Source: Candidatus Latescibacterota bacterium
GTDB taxonomy: Bacteria; Latescibacterota; UBA2968
Assembly: GCA_965207885.1 (NCBI GenBank)
Contig: OZ242311.1
Span: 1,856,001 to 1,920,000 of the forward strand
DNA length: 64,000 nucleotides
Direction of reading: 5' to 3'
In this document: positions 23,301 through 37,984 of the stretch, in pieces
How positions within the stretch are numbered: the first letter of the stretch is position 1
Layout of the letters: every line of letters starts with the position of its first letter
Program-made: the position numbers and the translations under genes
The notes under the pieces: model-generated
Told to the model about the DNA's origin: nothing
The model's input: the letters and a program-made list of their open reading frames with translations, nothing else
The model's database searches: none

Positions 23301-24026
23301 TCAAGCCTGTGATTGATGCAGTTTTTCATAAGCTATCGGTGCATGGTAAGCAATGGAAGAGTGCCTGCGATGCGGATTATACCACCCTTCAATGTAGGAG
23401 AAGATAGCCAACCGAGCCTCTTTATGCGTACGGAAGGATCGGCGATTGATCAGTTCACACTCCAAGGTGGCGAAAAAGCTCTCGCACAGTGCGTTGTCAT
23501 AGCAGTCGCCAGCAGCTCCCATTGAGGGACGTACGCCAGCCTCCTGACAACGCTTTCCAAATGCTATGGAGGTATATTGCGCCCCCTGGTCAGAGTGATG
23601 GATCACGTCTTCGGGTCGGCGCTGGTAAAGTGCCATATTTAAAGCCGATAAGACCAACTCACTTTGCAAGTGGCTCGCCATTGCCCAGCCCACAACGCGG
23701 CGGGAGAAGGCATCTACGACAACAGAGAGATACAAAAATCCAGACCAAGTGGGTACATAGGTGATGTCGGCCACCCAGAGTTTATTGACCGTTGCCACAG
23801 TGAAGTCGCGCTTTATCAGATCGGGAGCCTTGACAGCCTGATGCGTTTTACGGGTCGTTGTGGTGCTCTTTCTGCGGCTGATGCCACAAATGGTCATCTC
23901 TCGCATGAGACGCGCCACACGCTTCTTGCCTACTCGGATACCCATATCCATCAGGTCTTTCCAGATGCGAGGGGCACCATAAGTGCTATCTGATCGGGTG
24001 TGAAAGGCTTTGATATGTTCCTTCAA
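23301..24026 (-). CDS. IS3 transposase OrfB (DDE); frame stays open upstream into the orfA overlap
   Basis: YGAPRI, WVADITY, HHSDQGAQY, DNALCESFF, YN..RRHS. Confidence 0.92.
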   Translation of the reverse strand: MKEHIKAFHTRSDSTYGAPRIWKDLMDMGIRVGKKRVARLMREMTICGISRRKSTTTTRKTHQAVKAPDLIKRDFTVATVNKLWVADITYVPTWSGFLYLSVVVDAFSRRVVGWAMASHLQSELVLSALNMALYQRRPEDVIHHSDQGAQYTSIAFGKRCQEAGVRPSMGAAGDCYDNALCESFFATLECELINRRSFRTHKEARLAIFSYIEGWYNPHRRHSSIAYHAPIAYEKLHQSQA

Positions 24027-26838: not shown

Positions 26839-27690
26839 ATGCTATGCCGCGTGCTGGGTGTCTCCACCAGTGGGTATTATGCCTGGTGTAATAGACCTTT
26901 ATCTAAACGGGCAAAGGACGATGAAAAGTTAACAGAACAAATAAGCACCTTTCATCAGCGTTCTAATGGAACCTATGGCGCACCGCGTATCTTTCAGGAT
27001 CTGCGCGAAGTAGGTGTCCACATCAGCAAGAAACGGGTCGCAAGACTGATGCGACAAGCCAATATATGTGGTGTGAGCCGAAGAAAAGGTATCCTGACTA
27101 CATACCGGTCTATCACAGACGAGAAAGCCCCTGATCTGGTTAAGCGAGACTTTAGGGTTGATAAGCCCAACAAGCTGTGGGTCGCTGATATTACCTACAT
27201 AAAAACCTGGTCTGGCTTTTTGTATCTCTCTGTTGTTCTCGACGCCTTCTCCAGACGCGTAGTTGGTTGGGCAATGGCCTCGCATCTGAAGACCCAACTG
27301 GTCTTAGATGCCTTGGATATGGCACTTTGGAACCGACGACCAGATGGGGTCATCCATCATTCAGATCAAGGCGCTCAATATACCTCTTATGCCTTTGGTC
27401 AACGCTGTGCAAGAATGGGGGTCAAACCCTCTGTCGGATCGGTTGGCGATTGCTTTGACAATGCCTTGTGTGAAAGCTTCTTTGCTACCCTTGAATGCGA
27501 GTTGATAGACCGGCATAGCTTCCCCAATCATAATCAGGCCAAACTGTCTATCTTCGAGTATATTGAAGGGTGGTATAACCCACACCGCAGACACTCTGCG
27601 ATCAGGTACCAATCGCCCATCACCTATGAAAAACTGATGGCAAAAGGTGACGGGGTTGAAAGTTCTACACTATCCACTAAAACGGGGTAA
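26839..27690 (+). CDS. IS3 transposase OrfB (DDE)
   Basis: LCRVLGVSTSGYY, WVADITY, HHSDQG, DNALCESFF. Confidence 0.92.
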   Translation: MLCRVLGVSTSGYYAWCNRPLSKRAKDDEKLTEQISTFHQRSNGTYGAPRIFQDLREVGVHISKKRVARLMRQANICGVSRRKGILTTYRSITDEKAPDLVKRDFRVDKPNKLWVADITYIKTWSGFLYLSVVLDAFSRRVVGWAMASHLKTQLVLDALDMALWNRRPDGVIHHSDQGAQYTSYAFGQRCARMGVKPSVGSVGDCFDNALCESFFATLECELIDRHSFPNHNQAKLSIFEYIEGWYNPHRRHSAIRYQSPITYEKLMAKGDGVESSTLSTKTG

Positions 27691-28105: not shown

Positions 28106-29596
28106 TTAGTTGATCACAATTATTTGATCACGCCACTTAGAATTCTCATAGTTTTCCAGACATTCGGTAATCAATGCTGCTTCTGGATAATTGATGAGTA
28201 TTTCGAGAGTCTTTTCTATATCCTGTGAAAAAAAAGGTCGTTTAGCTTCGGAGTTTTTTAGCTTTATATGCAAAAAATTTATCAGTTCGTCTTTCTTCTC
28301 ATGTTTTGAAAGAATGCGCATTATCTTATCAAGCCGTTCAATTTTGAGACGAAACTTGTAATCATCATCCAAAAAGCATTCCAATAACGCACCTCTCAAC
28401 ATGTCGTCAGGCCAAGCATCAGGTTCTGCAATCCACCAGTCAAGAAACCTAATAGCGTAGTTTGAGTCTCCATTAGCTGCCTGCAAAATATTACGACCAA
28501 GTATTTCGGCTTGATCAGCCTCCAAGTTTCCTAAGTTATTCTCTCCATTTTGCATTATTAGTTGCATCGCTGGATTTTGGGTGTACCAATCACGAGATTT
28601 CAAATCTTCTATAATCTTGTCAAAGCATGTCGATATTTGCAAACCCGACGCCATCAATGTTTCGATTCTAGTTTTCCCAATAGCCTCTTGAAATCTGTCT
28701 TTCTGTCTATCGTTAAGTGCATCCGCATCGTACAGACACTCCAAATCACTTAGGCCAGATGGTATATTTGAGCTACCTATTAGGCGTGCGACGATACTAT
28801 CTTGTGCTCTCTGCCCAATTTCTTTGAATAACTCCGGGCGATTTGCAAGTATCAAGCACAAAATTTGCGGATGTTTTATAACGAGATTATGCCACTGCTC
28901 TACATTGAAAATTCCACAACCTACGAGTTCTAAAAATCTGCGAAGAAACCAAGTGGCCCTATTCGTAAGTAATTCGAGACTCACGTCGGTGGCGACAGGC
29001 TCAATTTCCTTCATGTACTTTTCTACAAAATAACCATAAACATCTTTATCGAGCTTTGGTGTAATGCTTTCTACGTATCTGCTGACAGTAGGTTCGTGAT
29101 TGTCGAGATAGGAGCTTTTCATTAGATTCTCAATCAACGAAGATACATAGCCCTCTTTTAAAGTGGTAGGTTTAGATAGCACATTCTCGACTACTGTGCA
29201 GGCAGCATGTCCGACTTCTTCCTCAGAGGGAGCTTCTTCATAAGGATGCCCGAAGATACAACGCATTTCGTATATATGTTCTAATTTTTGGTGCGCAATA
29301 TCAGATACAAAACCATAGTCTCGAGCTTTAACGAGAATGAATTTATCGATACTCTGGTGTTTTTTTTCTTGTTCTTCGAATTCACTAACAATTTTTGCGG
29401 CAATGTGATCTCTGAGGGCAGCTTCTCGAAATTTACGTTTAAGAGATTCCAAACACGAAAGCCATAATAGAATGTAGGCCCCTCTGAGTGCTCCAACTCG
29501 TGCAGATTCAACAGCCTCATCAAAGAGTGGTTTGTCATTATCCGCAAGTACTCTGTTTTGATATTCAGATAAATCTGTCCTGTTCTCGTTATTCAT
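28106..29596 (-). CDS. Hypothetical protein with N-terminal HEPN (DUF4145-like) motif
   Basis: 'FDEAV...GALRGAYILLW...LESL' helix and Rx4H motif RCIFGH; helical C-terminus; GGAGAGGAG RBS. Confidence 0.65.
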   Translation of the reverse strand: MNNENRTDLSEYQNRVLADNDKPLFDEAVESARVGALRGAYILLWLSCLESLKRKFREAALRDHIAAKIVSEFEEQEKKHQSIDKFILVKARDYGFVSDIAHQKLEHIYEMRCIFGHPYEEAPSEEEVGHAACTVVENVLSKPTTLKEGYVSSLIENLMKSSYLDNHEPTVSRYVESITPKLDKDVYGYFVEKYMKEIEPVATDVSLELLTNRATWFLRRFLELVGCGIFNVEQWHNLVIKHPQILCLILANRPELFKEIGQRAQDSIVARLIGSSNIPSGLSDLECLYDADALNDRQKDRFQEAIGKTRIETLMASGLQISTCFDKIIEDLKSRDWYTQNPAMQLIMQNGENNLGNLEADQAEILGRNILQAANGDSNYAIRFLDWWIAEPDAWPDDMLRGALLECFLDDDYKFRLKIERLDKIMRILSKHEKKDELINFLHIKLKNSEAKRPFFSQDIEKTLEILINYPEAALITECLENYENSKWRDQIIVIN

Positions 29597-29769: not shown

Positions 29770-30126
29770 CTAAAGCGGAATAATCCCAAACGCTTTTTTC
29801 CGAAATGTAGTTGGAGTATCGCCATACTTCTCTTTGAAAATCTTGCTAAATGTCGATAAAGATGTAAACCCACACATATAAGCAATTTCTGTAATAGAAT
29901 ATGGTGTGTTCTTCATCGCTTCTCTGGCCTTTGCCAGGCGTACATTCTGAAGGCACGTCCCGAATGGTGCGCCCAGGTGTTTTTTGAACAATGCGTAACC
30001 ATGCGATTTAGAAAATCGAAAATAGCGCATGACGTCTTCAAATTTTAGATCTGGATTGCTGTAATGATTCTCCAAAAACGATTCCAATGCGATCTTACAT
30101 ATATCTTGCATCTGCTTGTCCATCAA
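29770..30126 (-). CDS. Stand-alone AraC/XylS DNA-binding domain protein
   Basis: 'RLAKAREAM...SITEIAYMCGFTSLSTFSKIFKEKYGDTPTTFR' AraC signature; no effector domain. Confidence 0.85.
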   Translation of the reverse strand: MMDKQMQDICKIALESFLENHYSNPDLKFEDVMRYFRFSKSHGYALFKKHLGAPFGTCLQNVRLAKAREAMKNTPYSITEIAYMCGFTSLSTFSKIFKEKYGDTPTTFRKKAFGIIPL

Positions 30127-30191: not shown

Positions 30192-31100
30192 TTAATGTGA
30201 AAACTGAGCGTCTCGAAAAAACGTATTGACGATTGTCATATAACAGGCATTCTGTTTTCTTTTTTTCTTTTCTGGTGAGAGTGCGGAATTCCGATCCCTG
30301 AACTCTTGGATGCGCTCAGGCGTAACCCCATAGATATTCCGAATGGTATTGAACAGACCAATCAGATCTGTCTCACAGCAACTATTCGCTTTAGCCAGCG
30401 CGCTCAAATACACATCATCAACATGGGATAATGCCTTTGTAATACGGGAGCGCGTTTCGCTGACAGACTGAACATCCGAAAGTCTGGCAGGCGCATTCCA
30501 ACACGGTGTCACGGATCTGACCTTACGCAGCACTGCCAGATGGTGGTCCTCGCGGATAACCTCCACTGCAAAATTACCGGGATAGACGGATAGCCAGTTC
30601 TCGACAATTTGCTTCTCAAATCGCCTTCTGAAATCGTCCAGAATGACCAGACCACCAATCTTAATCTGATCATAAACCTGATAAAGGCATGCCTCTCGAC
30701 CTCGCAAGGTATAGACCGGCGGACCATCAATAATCACGCAATCTATCTCTTCCTCCCAAAATATCCCATCTTCATAAGTCAAAAATTCCGCATTTCCATA
30801 AGATTCAAGAGTAATCGGACGATATCTGATCGACAGATTGCGCTTATCCCAGAATGTTTGCATCAAACTCGTGGTCTCTGCAAAATTCCGCCAATCGCCT
30901 TCCATAGACAGAACCTCGGCTTCCGAAAACGCCATCGCCAGACGGATAGAACTCGGACCACTTCCAAACTCGAGAATTCTTTCTACTGGGGACATCTGAA
31001 GAAGCGTGGTTGTAATTCTCTTAAACGCCGTCTCACCAATGCTCCAGCCCGCGTCCAGATTAAGCCGATCCGGTATTTTGAGGTCTGAAATTTTATGCAT
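30192..31100 (-). CDS. Class I SAM-dependent methyltransferase
   Basis: ILEFGSGPS, VLSMEG, VIIDGP, GGLVILDD. Confidence 0.82.
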   Translation of the reverse strand: MHKISDLKIPDRLNLDAGWSIGETAFKRITTTLLQMSPVERILEFGSGPSSIRLAMAFSEAEVLSMEGDWRNFAETTSLMQTFWDKRNLSIRYRPITLESYGNAEFLTYEDGIFWEEEIDCVIIDGPPVYTLRGREACLYQVYDQIKIGGLVILDDFRRRFEKQIVENWLSVYPGNFAVEVIREDHHLAVLRKVRSVTPCWNAPARLSDVQSVSETRSRITKALSHVDDVYLSALAKANSCCETDLIGLFNTIRNIYGVTPERIQEFRDRNSALSPEKKKRKQNACYMTIVNTFFRDAQFSH

Positions 31101-31248: not shown

Positions 31249-32679
31249 TTATGAAGCCACTTCCAGATCATATCGCCGCTGCAACAAAGACGCATCGACT
31301 TCTGCAATCTCCATACACATCTCCATCGCCAGTTCATAGCGATAGCGCGTCTGTTCGCAAGCAACAGGGTTGGGATACATCGGGTCACCCGTTGTCGTTC
31401 GCGCCTCCCAAAGACATCCGCCACCACACAAGTTGCGCGCCCAGCACGTCTTGCACTCAGGACGATTATTCACATTGAACTGCGCGTCAAAATACTGCTG
31501 CTTTTCGCGATCAATACCCGCAAACACATCACCCATCTTAAACTCGGGCGCATCGGCCAAACTCGAACAAAAATAAATCGACCCATCTGCTGCAATCGCC
31601 AAATACTGCTTGCCACCGAGACATCCATGACAGGATTTTTGGCGCGTCAACAGTTTTTGAATCCGCGGATCAAACTCCTCATGCTCTTCACCGCTTAAAA
31701 TAGCTTTGAGCGCACGCCTACTCCGCCTGTAAATTTGTTCCTTCAACGCGGGTATGTGTTCTTCCCCAATCGCATAGGGCGCATCCGGTGAAACAACAGC
31801 CGGACCAACAAGCGCGTTATCGGTACCCAGAGAACGCAACGCATCGGCAATCTGATCCTCGTCCATATCATAAGCTGTCATAACAGCCTGCAAATACACC
31901 CTCTCGGGAACCTCAGCAGTCAGTTTCTGTACATTCTGTGCCACAACATCATAAGTGCCAGAACCATTGTGAAACTTGCGAATGCGATCCTGTGTTTTAC
32001 GCCCGCCATCCAGACTGACCTTAATTTGAAACTTTTCATCAACCAAAAACTGCTTCATCTCGTCGGTCAACAGCGTGCCATTGGTCACAATGCCAAAACC
32101 AACCTGCACCCCCAGCCGCGCGCCCTGGGATTTGGCAAATGGGACAAGCTCCTGCATCAATGGAAAATTCAGAAGCGGCTCTCCGCCAAAAAAATCGATC
32201 TGGCACCGCTCAAACACCTGAGCCTCGGCGATGATCCAGCGTATCGCTTGCTCGGCAACGTCCGGTTGCATCAGCATTGCCTTACCGCCATAATCCCCGC
32301 CATGGGCAAAGCAATACGCGCATTGGATATTGCACGTATGGGAAACGTGCAAAGACACCTGCAAACGATCTATCTGCGAAACCCCACAGGCTGCCACCCC
32401 TTCTGTCGTCGGTACATCGGATACCACAGGTAGAGCACCATCCGAAATCAAACCCACCTGAGCCAATTCTTCGATAGCCTCGGTAATTTCCTCTGCCTCG
32501 TATTGATCAGCCAGAACCTGAACAACCCGATCAACAGACAAGCCCTCACAGCACGCTAAAATTGACTGGAACAGGGTATCCAATTCAAAAAACAGACCTG
32601 TCTCAACCTGATAGACAATCGGCTGTTTGCGCTCTTCAGTTTGAAAAAGATGCATGTCGCATTTTTTAATGCACAGCAT
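31249..32679 (-). CDS. Radical SAM/SPASM peptide maturase with N-terminal RRE (CteB/QhpD-like)
   Basis: CNIQCAYC, FFGGEPLL, TNGTLL, VSLDG; SPASM CX2C-X17-C and CX2CX5CX3CX18C; about 90-aa PqqD-like N-terminus; GAGGAG before ATG 32679 (alternative GTG 32706 overlaps the peptide stop). Confidence 0.9.
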   Translation of the reverse strand: MLCIKKCDMHLFQTEERKQPIVYQVETGLFFELDTLFQSILACCEGLSVDRVVQVLADQYEAEEITEAIEELAQVGLISDGALPVVSDVPTTEGVAACGVSQIDRLQVSLHVSHTCNIQCAYCFAHGGDYGGKAMLMQPDVAEQAIRWIIAEAQVFERCQIDFFGGEPLLNFPLMQELVPFAKSQGARLGVQVGFGIVTNGTLLTDEMKQFLVDEKFQIKVSLDGGRKTQDRIRKFHNGSGTYDVVAQNVQKLTAEVPERVYLQAVMTAYDMDEDQIADALRSLGTDNALVGPAVVSPDAPYAIGEEHIPALKEQIYRRSRRALKAILSGEEHEEFDPRIQKLLTRQKSCHGCLGGKQYLAIAADGSIYFCSSLADAPEFKMGDVFAGIDREKQQYFDAQFNVNNRPECKTCWARNLCGGGCLWEARTTTGDPMYPNPVACEQTRYRYELAMEMCMEIAEVDASLLQRRYDLEVAS

Positions 32680-32702: not shown

Positions 32703-32888
32703 TCACTTATCCCGATCATCAGCCTGATCAAAATCGTCCCAATCGTCATCGTCATTGGGAAAGGGGAGGGGAGGAACAGCTGTCCAAGATGGACATCCAA
32801 TTTCTAAACTCGTAGTTCGATATGTCCGAATATCCCCCTCTGTATCTATAGTTCCATTGACCAGGGTCAACTTGCGTCGCGTTGCCAT
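32703..32888 (-). CDS. Putative RiPP precursor peptide (61 aa)
   Basis: AAGGAGG RBS; first gene behind a sigma54 promoter; directly upstream of the rSAM gene; leader RKLTLVNG. Confidence 0.8.
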   Translation of the reverse strand: MATRRKLTLVNGTIDTEGDIRTYRTTSLEIGCPSWTAVPPLPFPNDDDDWDDFDQADDRDK

Positions 32889-32930
32889 GTTATCCTCCTT
32901 GTAAGAATCTAAATACCATCTGCCCTATAC

Positions 32931-32947
32931 TGCAAAATGTGTGCCAA
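32931..32947 (-). promoter_or_regulatory. sigma54 (-24/-12) promoter
   Basis: Minus strand TTGGCAC-ACATT-TTGCA matches TGGCAC-N5-TTGC(A/T) exactly, 42 nt upstream of the peptide ATG. Confidence 0.88.
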
Positions 32948-33052
32948 AAATCGTTCTAAAACAAAAAAGCACTTGAAAAATTCTCAAGTGCTTAAAAAAA
33001 CAAGGAAATAAAATTTAAGAATTACGTGTGTTGCAAATACGACATTCAGGCA

Positions 33053-33173
33053 TAAGTGTATATAACAGGATACACTTACAAACGTTTATTTAACTAAAAT
33101 ACTCATAACTATCTGATTTATATAAATATTTCTAACTGTAAATAATTAGATACACTGTATATATCAGGATACA
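33053..33173. promoter_or_regulatory. Three candidate enhancer (UAS) boxes TGTA-N10-TACA
   Basis: TGTATATAACAGGATACA (33057-33074), TGTAAATAATTAGATACA (33137-33154), TGTATATATCAGGATACA (33156-33173). Confidence 0.75.
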
Positions 33174-33184
33174 TATATTCAAGT

Positions 33185-36100
33185 CTATCTCAACCCCAGA
33201 CGATTAATCTTTTTATGCAGACCAACGCGCGTCATCCCCAATTCTCTGGCAGTATGCGTAATATTGTCCTCGCATTTCGCGAGCGCGTCTCGAATCAACC
33301 GTCTCTCATACTCCTGGACATGGTCTTGTAAACGCCCCTGGAATTCGACAGAGACATCTGGTACTGTATGCCCGATGGATTCTGAAAACAAATCGGGCGT
33401 AATATCACCCTCTTCTTCTGCCAATGCAACCGCACGCCGAATCTCATTCTCCAGCTCGCGCACATTGCCCGGCCAATTGTAATTTGTGAGTGCCCTGATA
33501 GCCCCCACTGTCAGCCCCCCAACCGACTTGTTGGCATCTTCTTTCGCCCGGGTGAGCAAATGTTTGGCCAATAACGGCACATCTTCAATATATTCCCGCA
33601 AAGGCGGCATATCGATCTGAATCACACGCAACCGGTAATACAAATCTTCGCGGAACGAGCCGTTTTCAACTTCTTTTTTTAAGTCTCGATTGGTCGCTGC
33701 AATAATGCGTACATCCACTGTGCGATCCACTGTTTCTCCAACACGCCGAATCTCCCCTTCCTGCAACACCCGCAACAAACTCCTTTGCAATTGCGGTGGG
33801 GCATCGGCGATTTCATCCAAAAAAACCGTCCCTCCATTGGCAGCCTCAAAAATCCCCTTATGATCTTCAGTCGCGCCAGTAAACGCCCCTTTTTTATGCC
33901 CAAACAACTCACTCTGCAACAACTCTGGTGAGAGTGTAGCACAATTTTGCGACAAAAACCGCTGGTCTTTGCGCGTACTATTGTAGTGTATGGCACGCGC
34001 AGCCAATTCTTTGCCCGTACCTGTTTCGCCTTGCACAAGCACGGAAACATCGCTCTTTGCAGCGCGTTCTATAAGTTGATAGATCGCCTGCATCGCATCG
34101 CTTTGTCCGAACATATCGCCAAGTTGATGCCGCCTTTCGACCTCTTGCTGCAAATATTGTGCTTTCTCTTCCAATTGTTCGTACATCCTCGCATTGACCA
34201 GCGCCATCCCCACCAGATTCGCAAATGCCTGCAAAAACGTCTGATCTGCTTCAGAAAATGCATTGCCAATGCCGCGATGATCCACATACAGAGCACCCAT
34301 CACACCCTCGTTCAGATGGAATACGGGCACAGACAATACAGATCGAATGTGGTAGTCTATCACGCTCTGGTAGCGATTGAGCCTTTCATCTATTTGGGCG
34401 TCCATACTCAAAACGGGTTCATTTGTTTCAATAACCCGACGAATAATACCCCGACTCAGTGCTTCTGCATCATCTGCTTCTACATTGTAGTAGCGCACGG
34501 CATCGACTGCAAAGCCTCGCGGAGTCTCATTTTTAATTGCAACAAGCACGCGCTCTGCTGAATAAACAGCCAACAAATTACCCAAAGTCCGGTCCAATAA
34601 TACTTTGACATCGCGTTCTGTGGTCAACTCCCGGCTCACATCGTAGAGCAAGCGCCAGCGATCAACAGATAAACTTTCAGAACTGGATGCGGCATTCTCG
34701 CCGCGAGAAGATTCACGCAATTGATTTAATAACACCCGTGTTTTCTCCAGAAAATAAGACATTTCCATTTCTTTAAACGCCTGTTTTGCCGCTTCGAGAT
34801 GTGCTTGCGCTTTTGGTACATCACCGCGCTGGAGATAAAACTCTCCAGCCATCAGCAATGCACGCGCCCAGTGATCGCCTTTGGACTCTCTTCGGCATTC
34901 AATCGCCTGCTCAAAAGCCTCTTCAGCCTCAGCTATCCGTCCTGCCTGAGCGAAAGCCGCACCAACACCGCAATACACCAGGGGCAATATGCCCGTGTAC
35001 ATACCCGATGTTTGCTGCGTACCTTCGCTGGCTCTTTCTGCCCATTCAAGTGCTTCTTCTGTATCTCCCATTCTCACAGCAGCCGTTGCTGCAATCGCAT
35101 AAGCGCGATAAATATAATCTTTGCGCGGTGTTTCCAAGAATCGCTCTGCTGAGGTCTCGACATATTCCAATGCCCCGGCAAAATCACCGCATTCCAGTGC
35201 CATTTCTCCCAGCCATAAAAAATTTACTGCCTCCCAGTACACAAACCCTCGCTTCTGCCACTCACCAATGACTTCATGGCAAACGGCTTCCGCACGATCA
35301 CGTTCACCCAGATAAAAATAAACTCTTTGAAGTAAATTGAGTACCCAAGTGCGCTGGTGCTCAAGTCCCTGTTGCTGAGATGTTTTTACAGTAGCTTCCA
35401 TACGTGCTTTGGCTGTCTTAAATTGAAATCCTATTAATGCAACCAAACCTTCTCGCCCCTGTATAAAAGCGTCCTTTTGTGGATCTTCCAGCACACGACG
35501 TTTCTCTATTTCCCGGCGCATATACGCAATCGCTTCCTCGTGCCGCCCAGACACATCGCACAAATAAGCCAAACTGCTTAATGCTTGAATTTCTCCGTCG
35601 AAATCACCGAGTTCCCGATAAAGCCGCAATGCCTCCAGCATATATTTTTCTGCTATTTCCCCATGTTGAAGTACGCTGTGAATACTACCTTCAGTCCACA
35701 AAATACGTGCCTTTAAATCATACCGATCATCGGGCAATAACGCCTTTGCCTCGTCTAAAAGTTTTAGTGCCCTATTGTGCTGACCACAATTGCGCAGCGC
35801 ATCTGCATAATCGCACAAAAATTCGACCGCATCTGCCTGTGATTTAAAAGCGTCATCCATCTGTTGCACAACTTCAAACCGTCTCAATGCCTGGCGATAA
35901 GCGTGTTTTGCCAATGCTTTTTTGCCCGATAGGCGCATATAATTCACAGCCTTATTTTGTTCTCCCGCCGCTACAAAATGATCTGCCAATGCTTCTGTCA
36001 ATTCTTCTGCATCTTCCGACTCTTCCAGAGCATTGCCAATTTCTCGATGTAACAGACGCCGCCGCACATCTTGCATGCGATCATAAATTGCCCGTCGATA

Positions 36101-37984
36101 CAAACCCTGTGAAAAACGATATCGCTCTTCATCGCCATAAGTAATTAACAGCCCTTCTGCAATCAGGTCTTCGAGCACATCCAACAACTCCAACTCATCA
36201 CCGAGCCAGATAGAAGCCAATAATTCCAAAGAAAAATCATTTAAAAAAACACACGCGTATTCCATTACCTGACGTTGCACCGCAGGAAGGGCAGTTATGC
36301 GCCTGTACAAAACCTCTGAAATATCATCGGACAACAAAGTTTCGGGAAATTCTCCCCACTGCCAATCGCCGTACACATTCTGCCAAACCACATCGGCATG
36401 CACCAGTGTCCTCACGGCCTCCACGACAAACAGGGGTTGCCCACCCGTTTCCCTGAACAGGGTTTGCAAGGCATCCGGCGGAATGGATCGCTCCCCCAAC
36501 ATCGACGCCGATAGATACCCCACCTCTTCTCGCGGTAGATCTTTCAACTGAATCCGGATCGCTTCAGAAAATTCATTGCTGTGTATAAAATTCTCAATTT
36601 CCTTTGGAATAGATTCCCTATTGGACCCTTGACAGGTCAGGCATAACAAAAATGGACACGGGTCTGGATCGCGCAACACATACTGCAAAAATTCCAGGGT
36701 CAATTCATCAAGCCATTGAATATCTTCCAAACACAACACAATGGGCTGTTTCTGCCGCAGGCGTTTTAATGACTGCAACCAGCGATCCATAACAGAAAAC
36801 TTGTCCGTCTCTAATGAATCGGGCACTCTCCCCACCAAATCCGTCGTCTTTACCCGCTGAAAAGCATCGATCAACGCACCGTATATTTGTCCACCCTCTT
36901 CCCGCCCTGCCCCTTTCAAACAAAGAAAATCGTGGATCAAAGCGTCACCCAATAATTCTTCAGCCAGTCTCGATTTGCCCACCCCTGCCTCACCCGAGAT
37001 CAAAACCACGCGCTGCTCGCCAGCTTGTACATCCCGCAACATCGCACGCAACGTCTTCATCTCGGATTCGCGCCCGACAAATTGCGGCCGCATCACTTTT
37101 CTATGCACATCGCGCTGCTCGTCATCCGGTAGCACAAACCCCGATGATGCCACACCATTTAACGCCTGCACCAGTTCTTCTGCCGACTGATAACGATCAA
37201 CAGGCTCCTTTGCCAGCAACTTCAGCACAATTTGTTGCGTCTGGGCCGGAACCTCGACATGGGCTTCAGCCATTGATGGCGGTGACTCTCGAATATGCTT
37301 CAAAATAACGGACACCGGGTTTTGTCCAGAAAAGGGCGGTGCGCCCGTGAGCATCTCATATAAAATCACGCCCAATGAATACAAATCTGACCGATGATCC
37401 ACCCATAACCCCTTACCCTGCTCTGGCGACATATACTCGGCGGTACCAATCGTCGCGCCCGTATGCGTAATGGAGGCACTATGCAGATGTCTAAATTTAG
37501 CCAACCCCAGATCCAGAATGGTAGTATCAATTCCCTCTTCAGTTTCCAAAACCATAATATTGGATGGCTTGAGATCGCGATGCACCGCACCCTGCGCGTG
37601 GACATAAGCCACCCCCTCGGCAATTTGTTGCATCAGAGCAAAAAAGGACGAAGCTCGGAATTGTCCCAACAATACGCGATCGGCTATTATTTTTTCCAAC
37701 GTCTTTCCGGGCAAATATTCCATCGTAAAATAGGGACGCTCCTCGGCAAAGCCCCAGGTGTATGTGCGCACCAGGCGCGGGTGCTCAAATCTGTTCAACA
37801 CCTGAAACTCTCTGTGAAAACGTCGATGCACAGACTTCTGATCCACCATCGTATTCAAAATTTTGAGCGCGCACTCCCGGTCTTGCTCCAGGTCTAACAC
37901 CCGATAAACTTCTCCCATGCCCCCGGTTCCCAGGTGCGCCTGGATTTGATACCTTTTGTCGAGAATGGTGTCGATTTTAAACAT
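33185..37984 (-). CDS. Ser/Thr kinase - AAA/STAND ATPase - TPR - GAF - sigma54 activator - Fis HTH fusion
   Basis: GTGGMGEVY, ALK, HRDLKPSN, DLG, YMSPEQ; GEAGVGKS and LCLED; TPR-like helices; GAF; GETGTGKE, GAFTGA, FLDEI, REDLYYRL, WPGNVREL; C-terminal HTH. Confidence 0.92.
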   Translation of the reverse strand: MFKIDTILDKRYQIQAHLGTGGMGEVYRVLDLEQDRECALKILNTMVDQKSVHRRFHREFQVLNRFEHPRLVRTYTWGFAEERPYFTMEYLPGKTLEKIIADRVLLGQFRASSFFALMQQIAEGVAYVHAQGAVHRDLKPSNIMVLETEEGIDTTILDLGLAKFRHLHSASITHTGATIGTAEYMSPEQGKGLWVDHRSDLYSLGVILYEMLTGAPPFSGQNPVSVILKHIRESPPSMAEAHVEVPAQTQQIVLKLLAKEPVDRYQSAEELVQALNGVASSGFVLPDDEQRDVHRKVMRPQFVGRESEMKTLRAMLRDVQAGEQRVVLISGEAGVGKSRLAEELLGDALIHDFLCLKGAGREEGGQIYGALIDAFQRVKTTDLVGRVPDSLETDKFSVMDRWLQSLKRLRQKQPIVLCLEDIQWLDELTLEFLQYVLRDPDPCPFLLCLTCQGSNRESIPKEIENFIHSNEFSEAIRIQLKDLPREEVGYLSASMLGERSIPPDALQTLFRETGGQPLFVVEAVRTLVHADVVWQNVYGDWQWGEFPETLLSDDISEVLYRRITALPAVQRQVMEYACVFLNDFSLELLASIWLGDELELLDVLEDLIAEGLLITYGDEERYRFSQGLYRRAIYDRMQDVRRRLLHREIGNALEESEDAEELTEALADHFVAAGEQNKAVNYMRLSGKKALAKHAYRQALRRFEVVQQMDDAFKSQADAVEFLCDYADALRNCGQHNRALKLLDEAKALLPDDRYDLKARILWTEGSIHSVLQHGEIAEKYMLEALRLYRELGDFDGEIQALSSLAYLCDVSGRHEEAIAYMRREIEKRRVLEDPQKDAFIQGREGLVALIGFQFKTAKARMEATVKTSQQQGLEHQRTWVLNLLQRVYFYLGERDRAEAVCHEVIGEWQKRGFVYWEAVNFLWLGEMALECGDFAGALEYVETSAERFLETPRKDYIYRAYAIAATAAVRMGDTEEALEWAERASEGTQQTSGMYTGILPLVYCGVGAAFAQAGRIAEAEEAFEQAIECRRESKGDHWARALLMAGEFYLQRGDVPKAQAHLEAAKQAFKEMEMSYFLEKTRVLLNQLRESSRGENAASSSESLSVDRWRLLYDVSRELTTERDVKVLLDRTLGNLLAVYSAERVLVAIKNETPRGFAVDAVRYYNVEADDAEALSRGIIRRVIETNEPVLSMDAQIDERLNRYQSVIDYHIRSVLSVPVFHLNEGVMGALYVDHRGIGNAFSEADQTFLQAFANLVGMALVNARMYEQLEEKAQYLQQEVERRHQLGDMFGQSDAMQAIYQLIERAAKSDVSVLVQGETGTGKELAARAIHYNSTRKDQRFLSQNCATLSPELLQSELFGHKKGAFTGATEDHKGIFEAANGGTVFLDEIADAPPQLQRSLLRVLQEGEIRRVGETVDRTVDVRIIAATNRDLKKEVENGSFREDLYYRLRVIQIDMPPLREYIEDVPLLAKHLLTRAKEDANKSVGGLTVGAIRALTNYNWPGNVRELENEIRRAVALAEEEGDITPDLFSESIGHTVPDVSVEFQGRLQDHVQEYERRLIRDALAKCEDNITHTARELGMTRVGLHKKINRLGLR

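Follow-up and report, generated by a model that had tools for sequence, protein, structure and literature searches.

A 64,000-nucleotide (nt) stretch of a Candidatus Latescibacterota genome (contig OZ242311.1, positions 1,856,001–1,920,000; this whole stretch is called the window below) carries an open reading frame (ORF) for a 61-amino-acid (aa) peptide with a single cysteine, followed closely by a gene for a radical S-adenosylmethionine (SAM) enzyme of the SPASM type. What kind of peptide is this, and what would the enzyme do to its only cysteine? By analogy with the nearest relatives of the enzyme, we consider it reasonably probable that the peptide belongs to an undescribed family, made on ribosomes and modified by radical-SAM enzymes, and that it is placed under sigma-54 control, docks on its enzyme through its leader, and receives one thioether macrocycle at Cys32. 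The features needed first are the following.

32703..32888, minus strand: gene for the 61-aa precursor peptide, identified by ORF translation, alignment, and the ratio of nonsynonymous to synonymous substitution rates (dN/dS)
32894..32900, minus strand: ribosome-binding site AAGGAGG, 5 nt before the peptide ATG
32932..32946, minus strand: sigma-54 (−24/−12) promoter TGGCACACATTTTGC, 43 nt before the peptide ATG
31249..32679, minus strand: gene for the 476-aa radical-SAM/SPASM peptide maturase, with its ATG at 32679 and a GAGGAG site upstream

The precursor peptide gene and its conservation

The ORF is a genuine and strongly conserved precursor peptide gene, because it has a ribosome-binding site, a sigma-54 promoter, dN/dS values of 0.12–0.36 outside one loop, and 121 distinct homologues. 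An earlier note, made from the nucleotide sequence, had reported its 61-aa translation, which we reproduced exactly from the minus strand (32703–32888), and its residue counts were likewise correct: one Cys (C32), two Trp (W35 and W50), and 10 Asp among the last 17 residues. The peptide is laid out as a leader (approximately residues 1–31), Cys32, a variable loop (33–37), the stretch VPPLPFP (38–44), an acidic tail (45–55, N-D4-W-D-D-F-D-Q), and a variable C-terminal end after residue 55. It matched no Pfam or NCBIfam family, the protein atlas gave nothing usable for it, and the best E-value in a PDB profile search (0.088) was not usable either.

A profile built from the three peptides of the window genome, in which two further paralogous peptides are 75% and 69% identical to that of the window, yielded 380 candidates, of which 248 reached E ≤1; the matches listed (120) were 57–87 aa in length, and none of these was named. 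When 121 distinct homologous peptides were aligned, M1, L7, N11, G12, C32, P39, P42, F43, and P44 were invariant, and K6, L9, G18, I20, V38, D47–D49, W50, D51, and F53 were conserved in at least 90%. The invariant leader core (L7, N11, and G12) agrees with the earlier claim of a ranthipeptide- or SCIFF-like leader, and the conservation of C32, proposed there as a check, held in 121/121 peptides. The same note had also singled out GCPSW, which is not a motif, because W35 is present in only 36 of the 121 peptides and the loop in which it lies is hypervariable. A single Cys occurs in 104/121 peptides; the other 17 carry two, the second being sporadic. In the tail, D47, D48, and D49 were found in 119, 116, and 118 peptides, respectively; W50, D52, F53, and Q55 were strongly conserved, with W50 kept in 118.

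The loop that follows Cys32 is hypervariable (entropy, 1.5–3.0 bits per column), and despite this its length is six residues in 119/121 peptides; the offset from Cys to the first tail Asp is fixed at +14 or +15. The window peptide has a five-residue loop (PSWTA, codons at 32776–32790), as does a near twin, reflecting a one-residue (one-codon) deletion; in the orthologous cassettes the loop reads PSGW[IVP]x. Across 33 gene copies, dN/dS (NG86) was lowest in VPPLPFP (0.12) and the acidic tail (0.13), intermediate in the leader (0.36), and highest in the post-Cys loop (0.95). Therefore, the proline stretch and the tail are the most constrained parts of the peptide. The acidic tail is under strong purifying selection in the genus of the window, and the substitution pattern of the loop points to free evolution or to diversifying pressure.

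The expression signals are conserved as well. An exact TGGCAC-N5-TTGC sequence has a single match in the window, at 32946–32932 on the same strand as the peptide; when one mismatch was allowed, there were 5 matches, against a mean of 4.89 in shuffled sequence. In 33/33 copies, GGCAC-N5-TTGC is located 43–59 nt before the ATG (19 copies were caught by a regular expression; the other 14, with GGGCAC or AGGCAC, were read by eye), and a purine-rich GGAG-type stretch, also read by eye, occupies the place of the ribosome-binding site in all 33. The assignment as a sigma-54 promoter thus combines the motif, its spacing, its place upstream, and the sigma-54 activator domain of the neighboring gene product (250.7 bits). 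Words of the window stretch occurred in sponge and marine metagenome runs. In each of four metatranscriptome libraries from two studies, contigs 85–99% alike covered the genes for the enzyme and the methyltransferase; the peptide bin was covered in two libraries and had no cover in X21 and X22. These data are assembled contigs that give no start, strand, or level; they document presence in RNA libraries and are weak support for expression.

The maturase and the candidate reactions at Cys32

The earlier note connected the precursor with a radical-SAM enzyme and a leader-binding RRE; the family and structure matches support a radical-SAM/SPASM enzyme and point to a probable recognition domain at its N-terminus. 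The enzyme gene begins 23 nt after the peptide stop codon, and all 33 full-length peptide genes (three in the window genome and 30 at loci of other metagenome-assembled genomes [MAGs]) lie directly upstream of an enzyme gene. The 476-aa sequence, already on record in identical form in the protein collection, matched Pfam Radical_SAM with 57.5 bits (cut-off, 29.5) and SPASM with 22.1 bits (cut-off, 21.5), and its N-terminus matched PqqD with 18.1 bits, below the cut-off of 23.4. The three Cys of the radical-SAM motif CxxxCxxC (CNIQCAYC) are invariant in 87 aligned relatives, as are C353, C371, C409, C412, C418, and C422 of the seven-Cys SPASM region, with C441 conserved in at least 90%. The best solved relative was CteB (5wgg), with an E-value of 3.5e−60 over residues 30–461, the N-terminal domain included. 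The best NCBIfam matches were SCIFF (TIGR03974, 264.7 bits; cut-off, 425), QhpD (262.2; 453), the nif11-peptide maturase (256.3; 518.7), and PapB (229.7; 340), all of which, as families, are thioether-formers. Within the protein collection, identity fell in steps from at least 86% in the enzyme's own group through 40–58% in its clade to at most 34% with SCIFF- and QhpD-named proteins. We therefore read the enzyme, by homology, as one that would work like a ranthipeptide or sactipeptide synthase outside every named family, with a reaction that may differ from theirs. The two classes are told apart by where the Cys sulfur is attached, at a non-alpha carbon in ranthipeptides and at an alpha carbon in sactipeptides.

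To compare active sites, we used the six positions near the catalytic site of CteB (F112, F152, T186, S210, H363, and Q364) given in PMC10288494. The signature is FFVSSS in the window enzyme and FF[V/T/A]SS[S/A/T] in its clade; SCIFF-named enzymes have FFTSHQ and one QhpD-named enzyme has YFTSHR. In addition, Cys350 (codon 31630–31632) forms a CxxC with the first SPASM Cys. This extra Cys is present in 3/3 close relatives and 30/50 clade relatives, against 0/34 SCIFF-like enzymes, and might serve as the remaining ligand of an auxiliary cluster.

A model of the complex of enzyme, peptide, three clusters, and SAM supports docking through the leader. Its score was 0.83 (runs: 0.84, 0.83, and 0.82) against 0.02 for the best control, with a predicted local distance difference test (pLDDT) value of 50 for the partner and at least 56% of contacts common to the runs; the mark applied is reached by 116/157 solved complexes and 2/215 mismatched pairs, a calibration that applies only roughly here. 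The modeled interface joins peptide residues 5–14, 18, and 20–27 to enzyme residues 21, 28–37, 64–75, 341–346, and 452–476. The binding of the leader to the recognition domain, as proposed in the earlier note, was recovered in this model, in which leader residues 5–14 were placed on enzyme residues 28–37 and 64–75. In the PapB work (PMC9413430), binding to the recognition domain was proposed to involve a conserved Asn of the leader; in the window family, N11 is present in 121/121 peptides.

More distant enzymes help to identify the reactive part of the peptide. The enzyme of locus L039 is 49% identical to that of the window and has a 42% identical regulator upstream; enzymes 44–70% identical to that of L039 occur in five other genera (24/168 genomes and 6/49 genera). 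A metagenome scan for the wider clade returned 79 loci, of which only L074–L077 and L085 belong to it, three with a usable upstream region. The sister-genus precursors share the leader pattern, and a single conserved Cys is retained in 11/12 of them; it is followed by a different proline- and aromatic-rich stretch, VCxWPxFP[ILV]LPPP or ITLSC[DY]PxFP, and an acidic tail is absent. Therefore, the tail is a genus-specific addition and not a general requirement or acceptor of the enzyme clade. At L062, the precursor appears to be split over two frames, with the leader in one and ITLSCYPDYPMFPWP in the other, reflecting a frameshift or an assembly error.

Because Cys32 is invariant in 121/121 peptides, is the single Cys in 104/121, and has a counterpart in 11/12 sister-genus precursors, we take it as the reactive residue. 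The best-supported mechanism, which we hold to be somewhat better than an even prospect by analogy with related enzymes, is the formation of a single Cys-derived thioether macrocycle. In this scheme, transcription would start from the sigma-54 promoter, switched probably by the adjacent 1599-aa activator acting on two 18-bp palindromes; the leader (approximately residues 5–14, RKLTLVNGTI) would bind as a strand to the recognition domain of the downstream enzyme, as in the model; and the enzyme would then act on Cys32, joining the Cys sulfur to a carbon of a residue further along the peptide in a single intramolecular thioether, as its nearest relatives suggest. The acceptor could be a tail Asp, 14–15 residues away, or a residue of the loop or the proline stretch. 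The resulting macrocycle would carry the fixed-length hypervariable loop beside the invariant VPPLPFP and the acidic D4-W-D-D-F. In those cassettes that also encode a class I methyltransferase (15/36), the peptide may be modified further by this enzyme.

Several observations weigh against this scheme. For every named family, the score of the enzyme falls short of the curated threshold. Sites 5 and 6 of its signature are Ser and Ser/Ala/Thr in 53/53 clade members, and in the SCIFF-like group they are His (32/34) and Gln (28/34); the reaction may therefore not be that of CteB, QhpD, or PapB, and the "atypical chemistry" entertained by the earlier note may thus stay alive, although a single Cys is not atypical in itself, KgrA being named as a single-Cys sactipeptide precursor in PMC10288494. 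The nearest tail Asp, at 14–15 residues from Cys, lies beyond the spacings tested for PapB. The complex model placed neither Cys32 nor anything beyond peptide residue 27, and because a CteB complex with peptide has already been solved, its passing score may reflect likeness to that complex and not this particular pair. At L085 (219–715), whose enzyme is 44% identical, two tandem precursors occur, the first with Cys (ITISCD), like all other relatives, and the second with Ser (ITLSSE). Finally, DNA can occur in RNA libraries, so the contigs mentioned above cannot prove transcription.

The most serious alternative is a particular version of the same scheme, in which the sulfur of Cys32 is joined to the beta-carbon of an Asp in D46–D49 in the manner of PapB or QhpD, with the loop and VPPLPFP inside a long-range ranthionine ring of approximately 15 residues. 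PapB and QhpD are among the best family matches of the enzyme, the Cys–Asp offset is fixed, D47–D49 are nearly universal, and, according to PMC9413430, PapB itself attaches Cys to the beta-carbon of Asp and accepts changes in spacing. Those tests, however, covered only 0–6 residues between Cys and Asp, with incomplete reaction at 0 and 6. Moreover, precursors of the 44–70% identical sister-genus enzymes have no acidic tail, the four to seven conserved acidic residues together with W and F exceed what one acceptor would need, and the active-site signature is unlike that of the QhpD-named enzyme. We regard this specific linkage as possible but rather unlikely.

It is improbable that the enzyme instead oxidizes the Cys itself, for example to formylglycine, a reactive aldehyde, which is the product that anaerobic sulfatase-maturating enzymes make from Cys or Ser. 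That family is homologous (114 bits; 4k36/4k37), Pro follows Cys at +1 or +2 in 114/121 peptides, and one of the paralogous L085 precursors has Ser at the Cys position. The sulfatase target motif is Cys/Ser-x-Pro-x-Arg; the window family has no Arg at +4 and has Pro at +1, not +2, in 50/121 peptides. In addition, the thioether-formers match far better (230–265 versus 114 bits), and the enzyme has a probable leader-recognition domain.

Still less credit can be given to a carbon–carbon three-residue cyclophane at W-D-D or F-D-Q of the tail, with the Cys serving another purpose. The enzyme weakly matches the cyclophane-forming families YhhB (86 bits) and FxsB (72 bits), and the tail residues concerned (W50, D52, F53, and Q55) are among the conserved ones. 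However, W50 is replaced by Arg in 3/121 peptides and 5/33 genomic copies, the tail is missing from the sister-genus precursors, and the thioether-former matches are threefold stronger. An origin of the ORF by chance, as an untranslated frame within a regulatory or leader region, can be dismissed, since no point in its favor was found and the ribosome-binding site, the promoter, synonymous change with amino acid conservation, 248 database relatives of the same length, and the confident leader–enzyme model speak otherwise.

Cassettes, regulators, and neighboring genes

The peptide and its maturase are part of a repeated unit, whose further elements in the window are as follows.

32957..32993, minus strand: terminator-like hairpin with 12 pairs and a T run, just upstream of the sigma-54 promoter
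33057..33074, minus strand: 18-bp palindrome TGTATCCTGTTATATACA, candidate upstream activator site 2
33156..33173, minus strand: 18-bp palindrome TGTATCCTGATATATACA, candidate upstream activator site 1
33185..37984, minus strand: gene for a 1599-aa regulator with a Ser/Thr kinase, an AAA_16 (STAND-type) NTPase, TPR, GAF, a sigma-54 activator AAA+ domain, and a Fis-type helix-turn-helix (HTH)
30192..31100, minus strand: accessory gene for a 302-aa probable class I SAM-dependent methyltransferase (Methyltransf_24-like)

Two additional regulator–peptide–enzyme cassettes are present in the window genome. When genomes were scanned with the enzyme sequence, 37 loci were recovered; at 32 of them the enzyme is 87–94% identical, and 31 of these 32 were in MAGs titled Latescibacterota, Latescibacteria, or Poribacteria. 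Of 33 loci checked for an upstream peptide, it was present in 31/31 belonging to the genus of the window and was not seen at the more distant L039 and L040. Among 168 genomes of the phylum, the peptide was restricted to this genus (G000 and 15/20 other species, with 0/148 elsewhere), and the positive genomes had 2–3 peptide matches each. By these sequence comparisons, the peptides form a new, genus-restricted, multi-copy family that would be modified by radical-SAM enzymes.

Gene content was counted over 36 cassettes (35 loci and the window), 34 of which are in the genus of the window. The regulator gene was upstream in 32/36 (31/34 within the genus); of the loci that lack it (L012, L021, L036, and L040), the first three belong to the same genus and are cut by contig ends. 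Each cassette has one regulator, with paralogues approximately 80% identical, and hypervariable regions are absent from the protein (identity of 0.64 in the least conserved 40-residue stretch versus 0.82 overall). The hairpin downstream of the regulator gene probably ends its transcript. The paired palindromes lie approximately 190 and 285 nt before the peptide ATG, and related palindromes occur at the same offsets in 14/33 copies by one pattern and in 13/33 by a strict palindrome test. Their half-sites differ by cassette lineage (TGTATCC, TGCATCC, and TGTAAAC), which suggests paralogue-specific activator sites; we infer that they are candidate binding sites of the adjacent activator.

A methyltransferase-like gene is downstream in 15/36 cassettes (14 loci and the window). 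The 302-aa protein of the window matches Methyltransf_24 weakly (E-value of 0.0031, below the cut-off), and in the protein atlas it falls with the class I SAM methyltransferases (score, 0.97; 24/30 hits share the family set). The gene that follows the enzyme at L039 was considered as a sister-genus counterpart and rejected as unrelated. In 12 cassettes, a short sigma-54 activator (approximately 335 aa, AAA+ and HTH only; e.g., L005:12376–13398, plus strand), approximately 40% identical to the C-terminus of the large regulator, follows the enzyme. At six of these 12 loci, those fetched far enough, it lies within approximately 200 nt of the enzyme gene with no methyltransferase-like gene between; L018 carries both genes.

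Further downstream, the window contains an AraC-type HTH fragment, a 496-aa protein, and IS3 transposases. The AraC-type gene (29770–30126) is a fragment here, and ORFs of approximately 230 aa match it at L019 and L033. The 496-aa protein (28106–29596, minus strand) has no Pfam or NCBIfam family and a weak PADLOC match to PD-T7-3 (E-value of 2.5e−7), and IS3-family transposase genes at 26839–27690 (plus strand) and 23301–24026 (minus strand) flank it. PADLOC otherwise gave only generic kinase, AAA+, and viperin-fold matches, and a reading as a defense system was dropped.

In the cassettes compared, no protease or exporter belongs to the conserved unit. The window genome has two C39-peptidase transporters, one approximately 7 kb downstream of the radical-SAM gene of the third cassette, with two M16 peptidases between them; among the loci whose ORFs were compared, M16 genes follow the enzyme at only one other, L021, and other M16 paralogues lie far from the cassettes. 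The proposal that M16 and C39 genes for processing and export are part of the conserved unit was rejected, since the arrangement is confined to the third cassette and L021. Downstream of the third cassette, the stretches L006:2–6657 (minus strand) and L021:2141–8747 contain two M16 genes, a C39-peptidase ABC transporter gene, and genes for proteins of approximately 190–200 aa whose only common region is a conserved N-terminus of approximately 45 aa. These genes may represent a separate multi-precursor peptide cluster, and an IS4/5-type transposase parts this type of cluster from the cassette.

The composition of the unit bears on a different view of its purpose, namely that the peptide is not exported as a natural product but serves its own regulator as an intracellular ligand or partner, and that specificity lies in the modified loop, so that a genome would contain two or three orthogonal circuits. 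The conserved unit is indeed regulator, peptide, and enzyme, with no protease or transporter common to the cassettes, and every cassette comes with a regulator and a palindrome variant of its own. Loop distance correlated with the most variable regulator segment (residues 761–900; r = 0.46, partial 0.46, 1/1000 permutations) and with the enzyme at only 0.08. However, orthologous cassettes share descent, which confounds the correlation, and more variable segments carry more such signal; we therefore discounted the co-variation as evidence. The absence of a hypervariable region in the regulator also speaks against this view, which we consider unlikely. Equally speculative is its fullest form, in which the cassette would be a self-contained peptide signaling circuit: a stapled ring would display the six-residue hypervariable loop, to be read by the TPR/STAND part of its own regulator, so that two or three orthogonal, pherotype-like channels would exist per cell, and VPPLPFP and the acidic tail would serve a further conserved interaction, possibly with a sponge host protein. 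VPPLPFP and the acidic-Trp/Phe tail presumably resemble eukaryotic short linear motifs.

Relation to known systems and significance

Compared with known systems, the preferred reading of a single-thioether peptide places the window enzyme nearest to CteB, which acts on the SCIFF precursor CteA (thermocellin). Both are radical-SAM/SPASM enzymes; the window enzyme, like CteB, has a probable N-terminal recognition domain, on which the window leader is modeled as a strand, and CteB is the best relative by solved structure and NCBIfam family. However, the window enzyme is only approximately 31% identical to CteB, its maturase score lies well below the SCIFF cut-off, its signature has Ser-Ser in place of His-Gln at sites 5 and 6, it has the extra CxxC Cys, and its peptide has one Cys instead of the six of a SCIFF precursor. 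QhpD, which acts on QhpC, scores almost equally. It forms Cys-to-Asp/Glu thioethers with spacings longer than those of PapB. The window system differs in its score below the QhpD cut-off, in its signature (FFVSSS versus YFTSHR), and in its single Cys, and there are no dehydrogenase subunit genes among the cassette neighbors.

PapB, which modifies PapA (freyrasin), is also related, and according to PMC9413430 it forms a Cys-to-Asp beta-carbon thioether in a leader-dependent manner. The window enzyme scores below the PapB cut-off, and its peptide family has no CX3D and no Asp or Glu 4 residues after Cys, the nearest Asp being at +14/+15. KgrC with KgrA offers a precedent for a single-Cys precursor of a radical-SAM thioether peptide (PMC10288494); KgrC is not among the families reported for the window enzyme. 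The N-terminal part of the regulator, in turn, matches the TOMM system kinase/cyclase fusion (TIGR03903; 290 bits in three stretches, below the cut-off of 705.75), a large protein with kinase and NTPase/TPR parts that NCBIfam names after a peptide-modification system; unlike that family, the window regulator ends in GAF, sigma-54 activator, and HTH domains and has no cyclase.

In the full-text literature, supplementary tables aside, we found no description of this precursor family. "Ranthipeptide" clusters of sponge-associated Latescibacterota are mentioned at the antiSMASH level in PMC12993501 and PMC11832590, one of which states that the function of such clusters is unknown.

For most members of the large class of radical-SAM thioether peptides, the biological role is unknown. 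The present family offers a simple test case, with one Cys, one enzyme, a variable loop of fixed length flanked by invariant segments, and numerous natural variants already available. Because its active-site signature is distinct, the enzyme clade could reveal a new regiochemistry or provide a useful single-staple macrocyclase. The host genus of uncultured bacteria is probably sponge-associated, and the dedicated regulators, the multiple cassettes, and the restriction to one genus suggest that these peptides have a conditional role, possibly in signaling or symbiosis, and not a housekeeping one.

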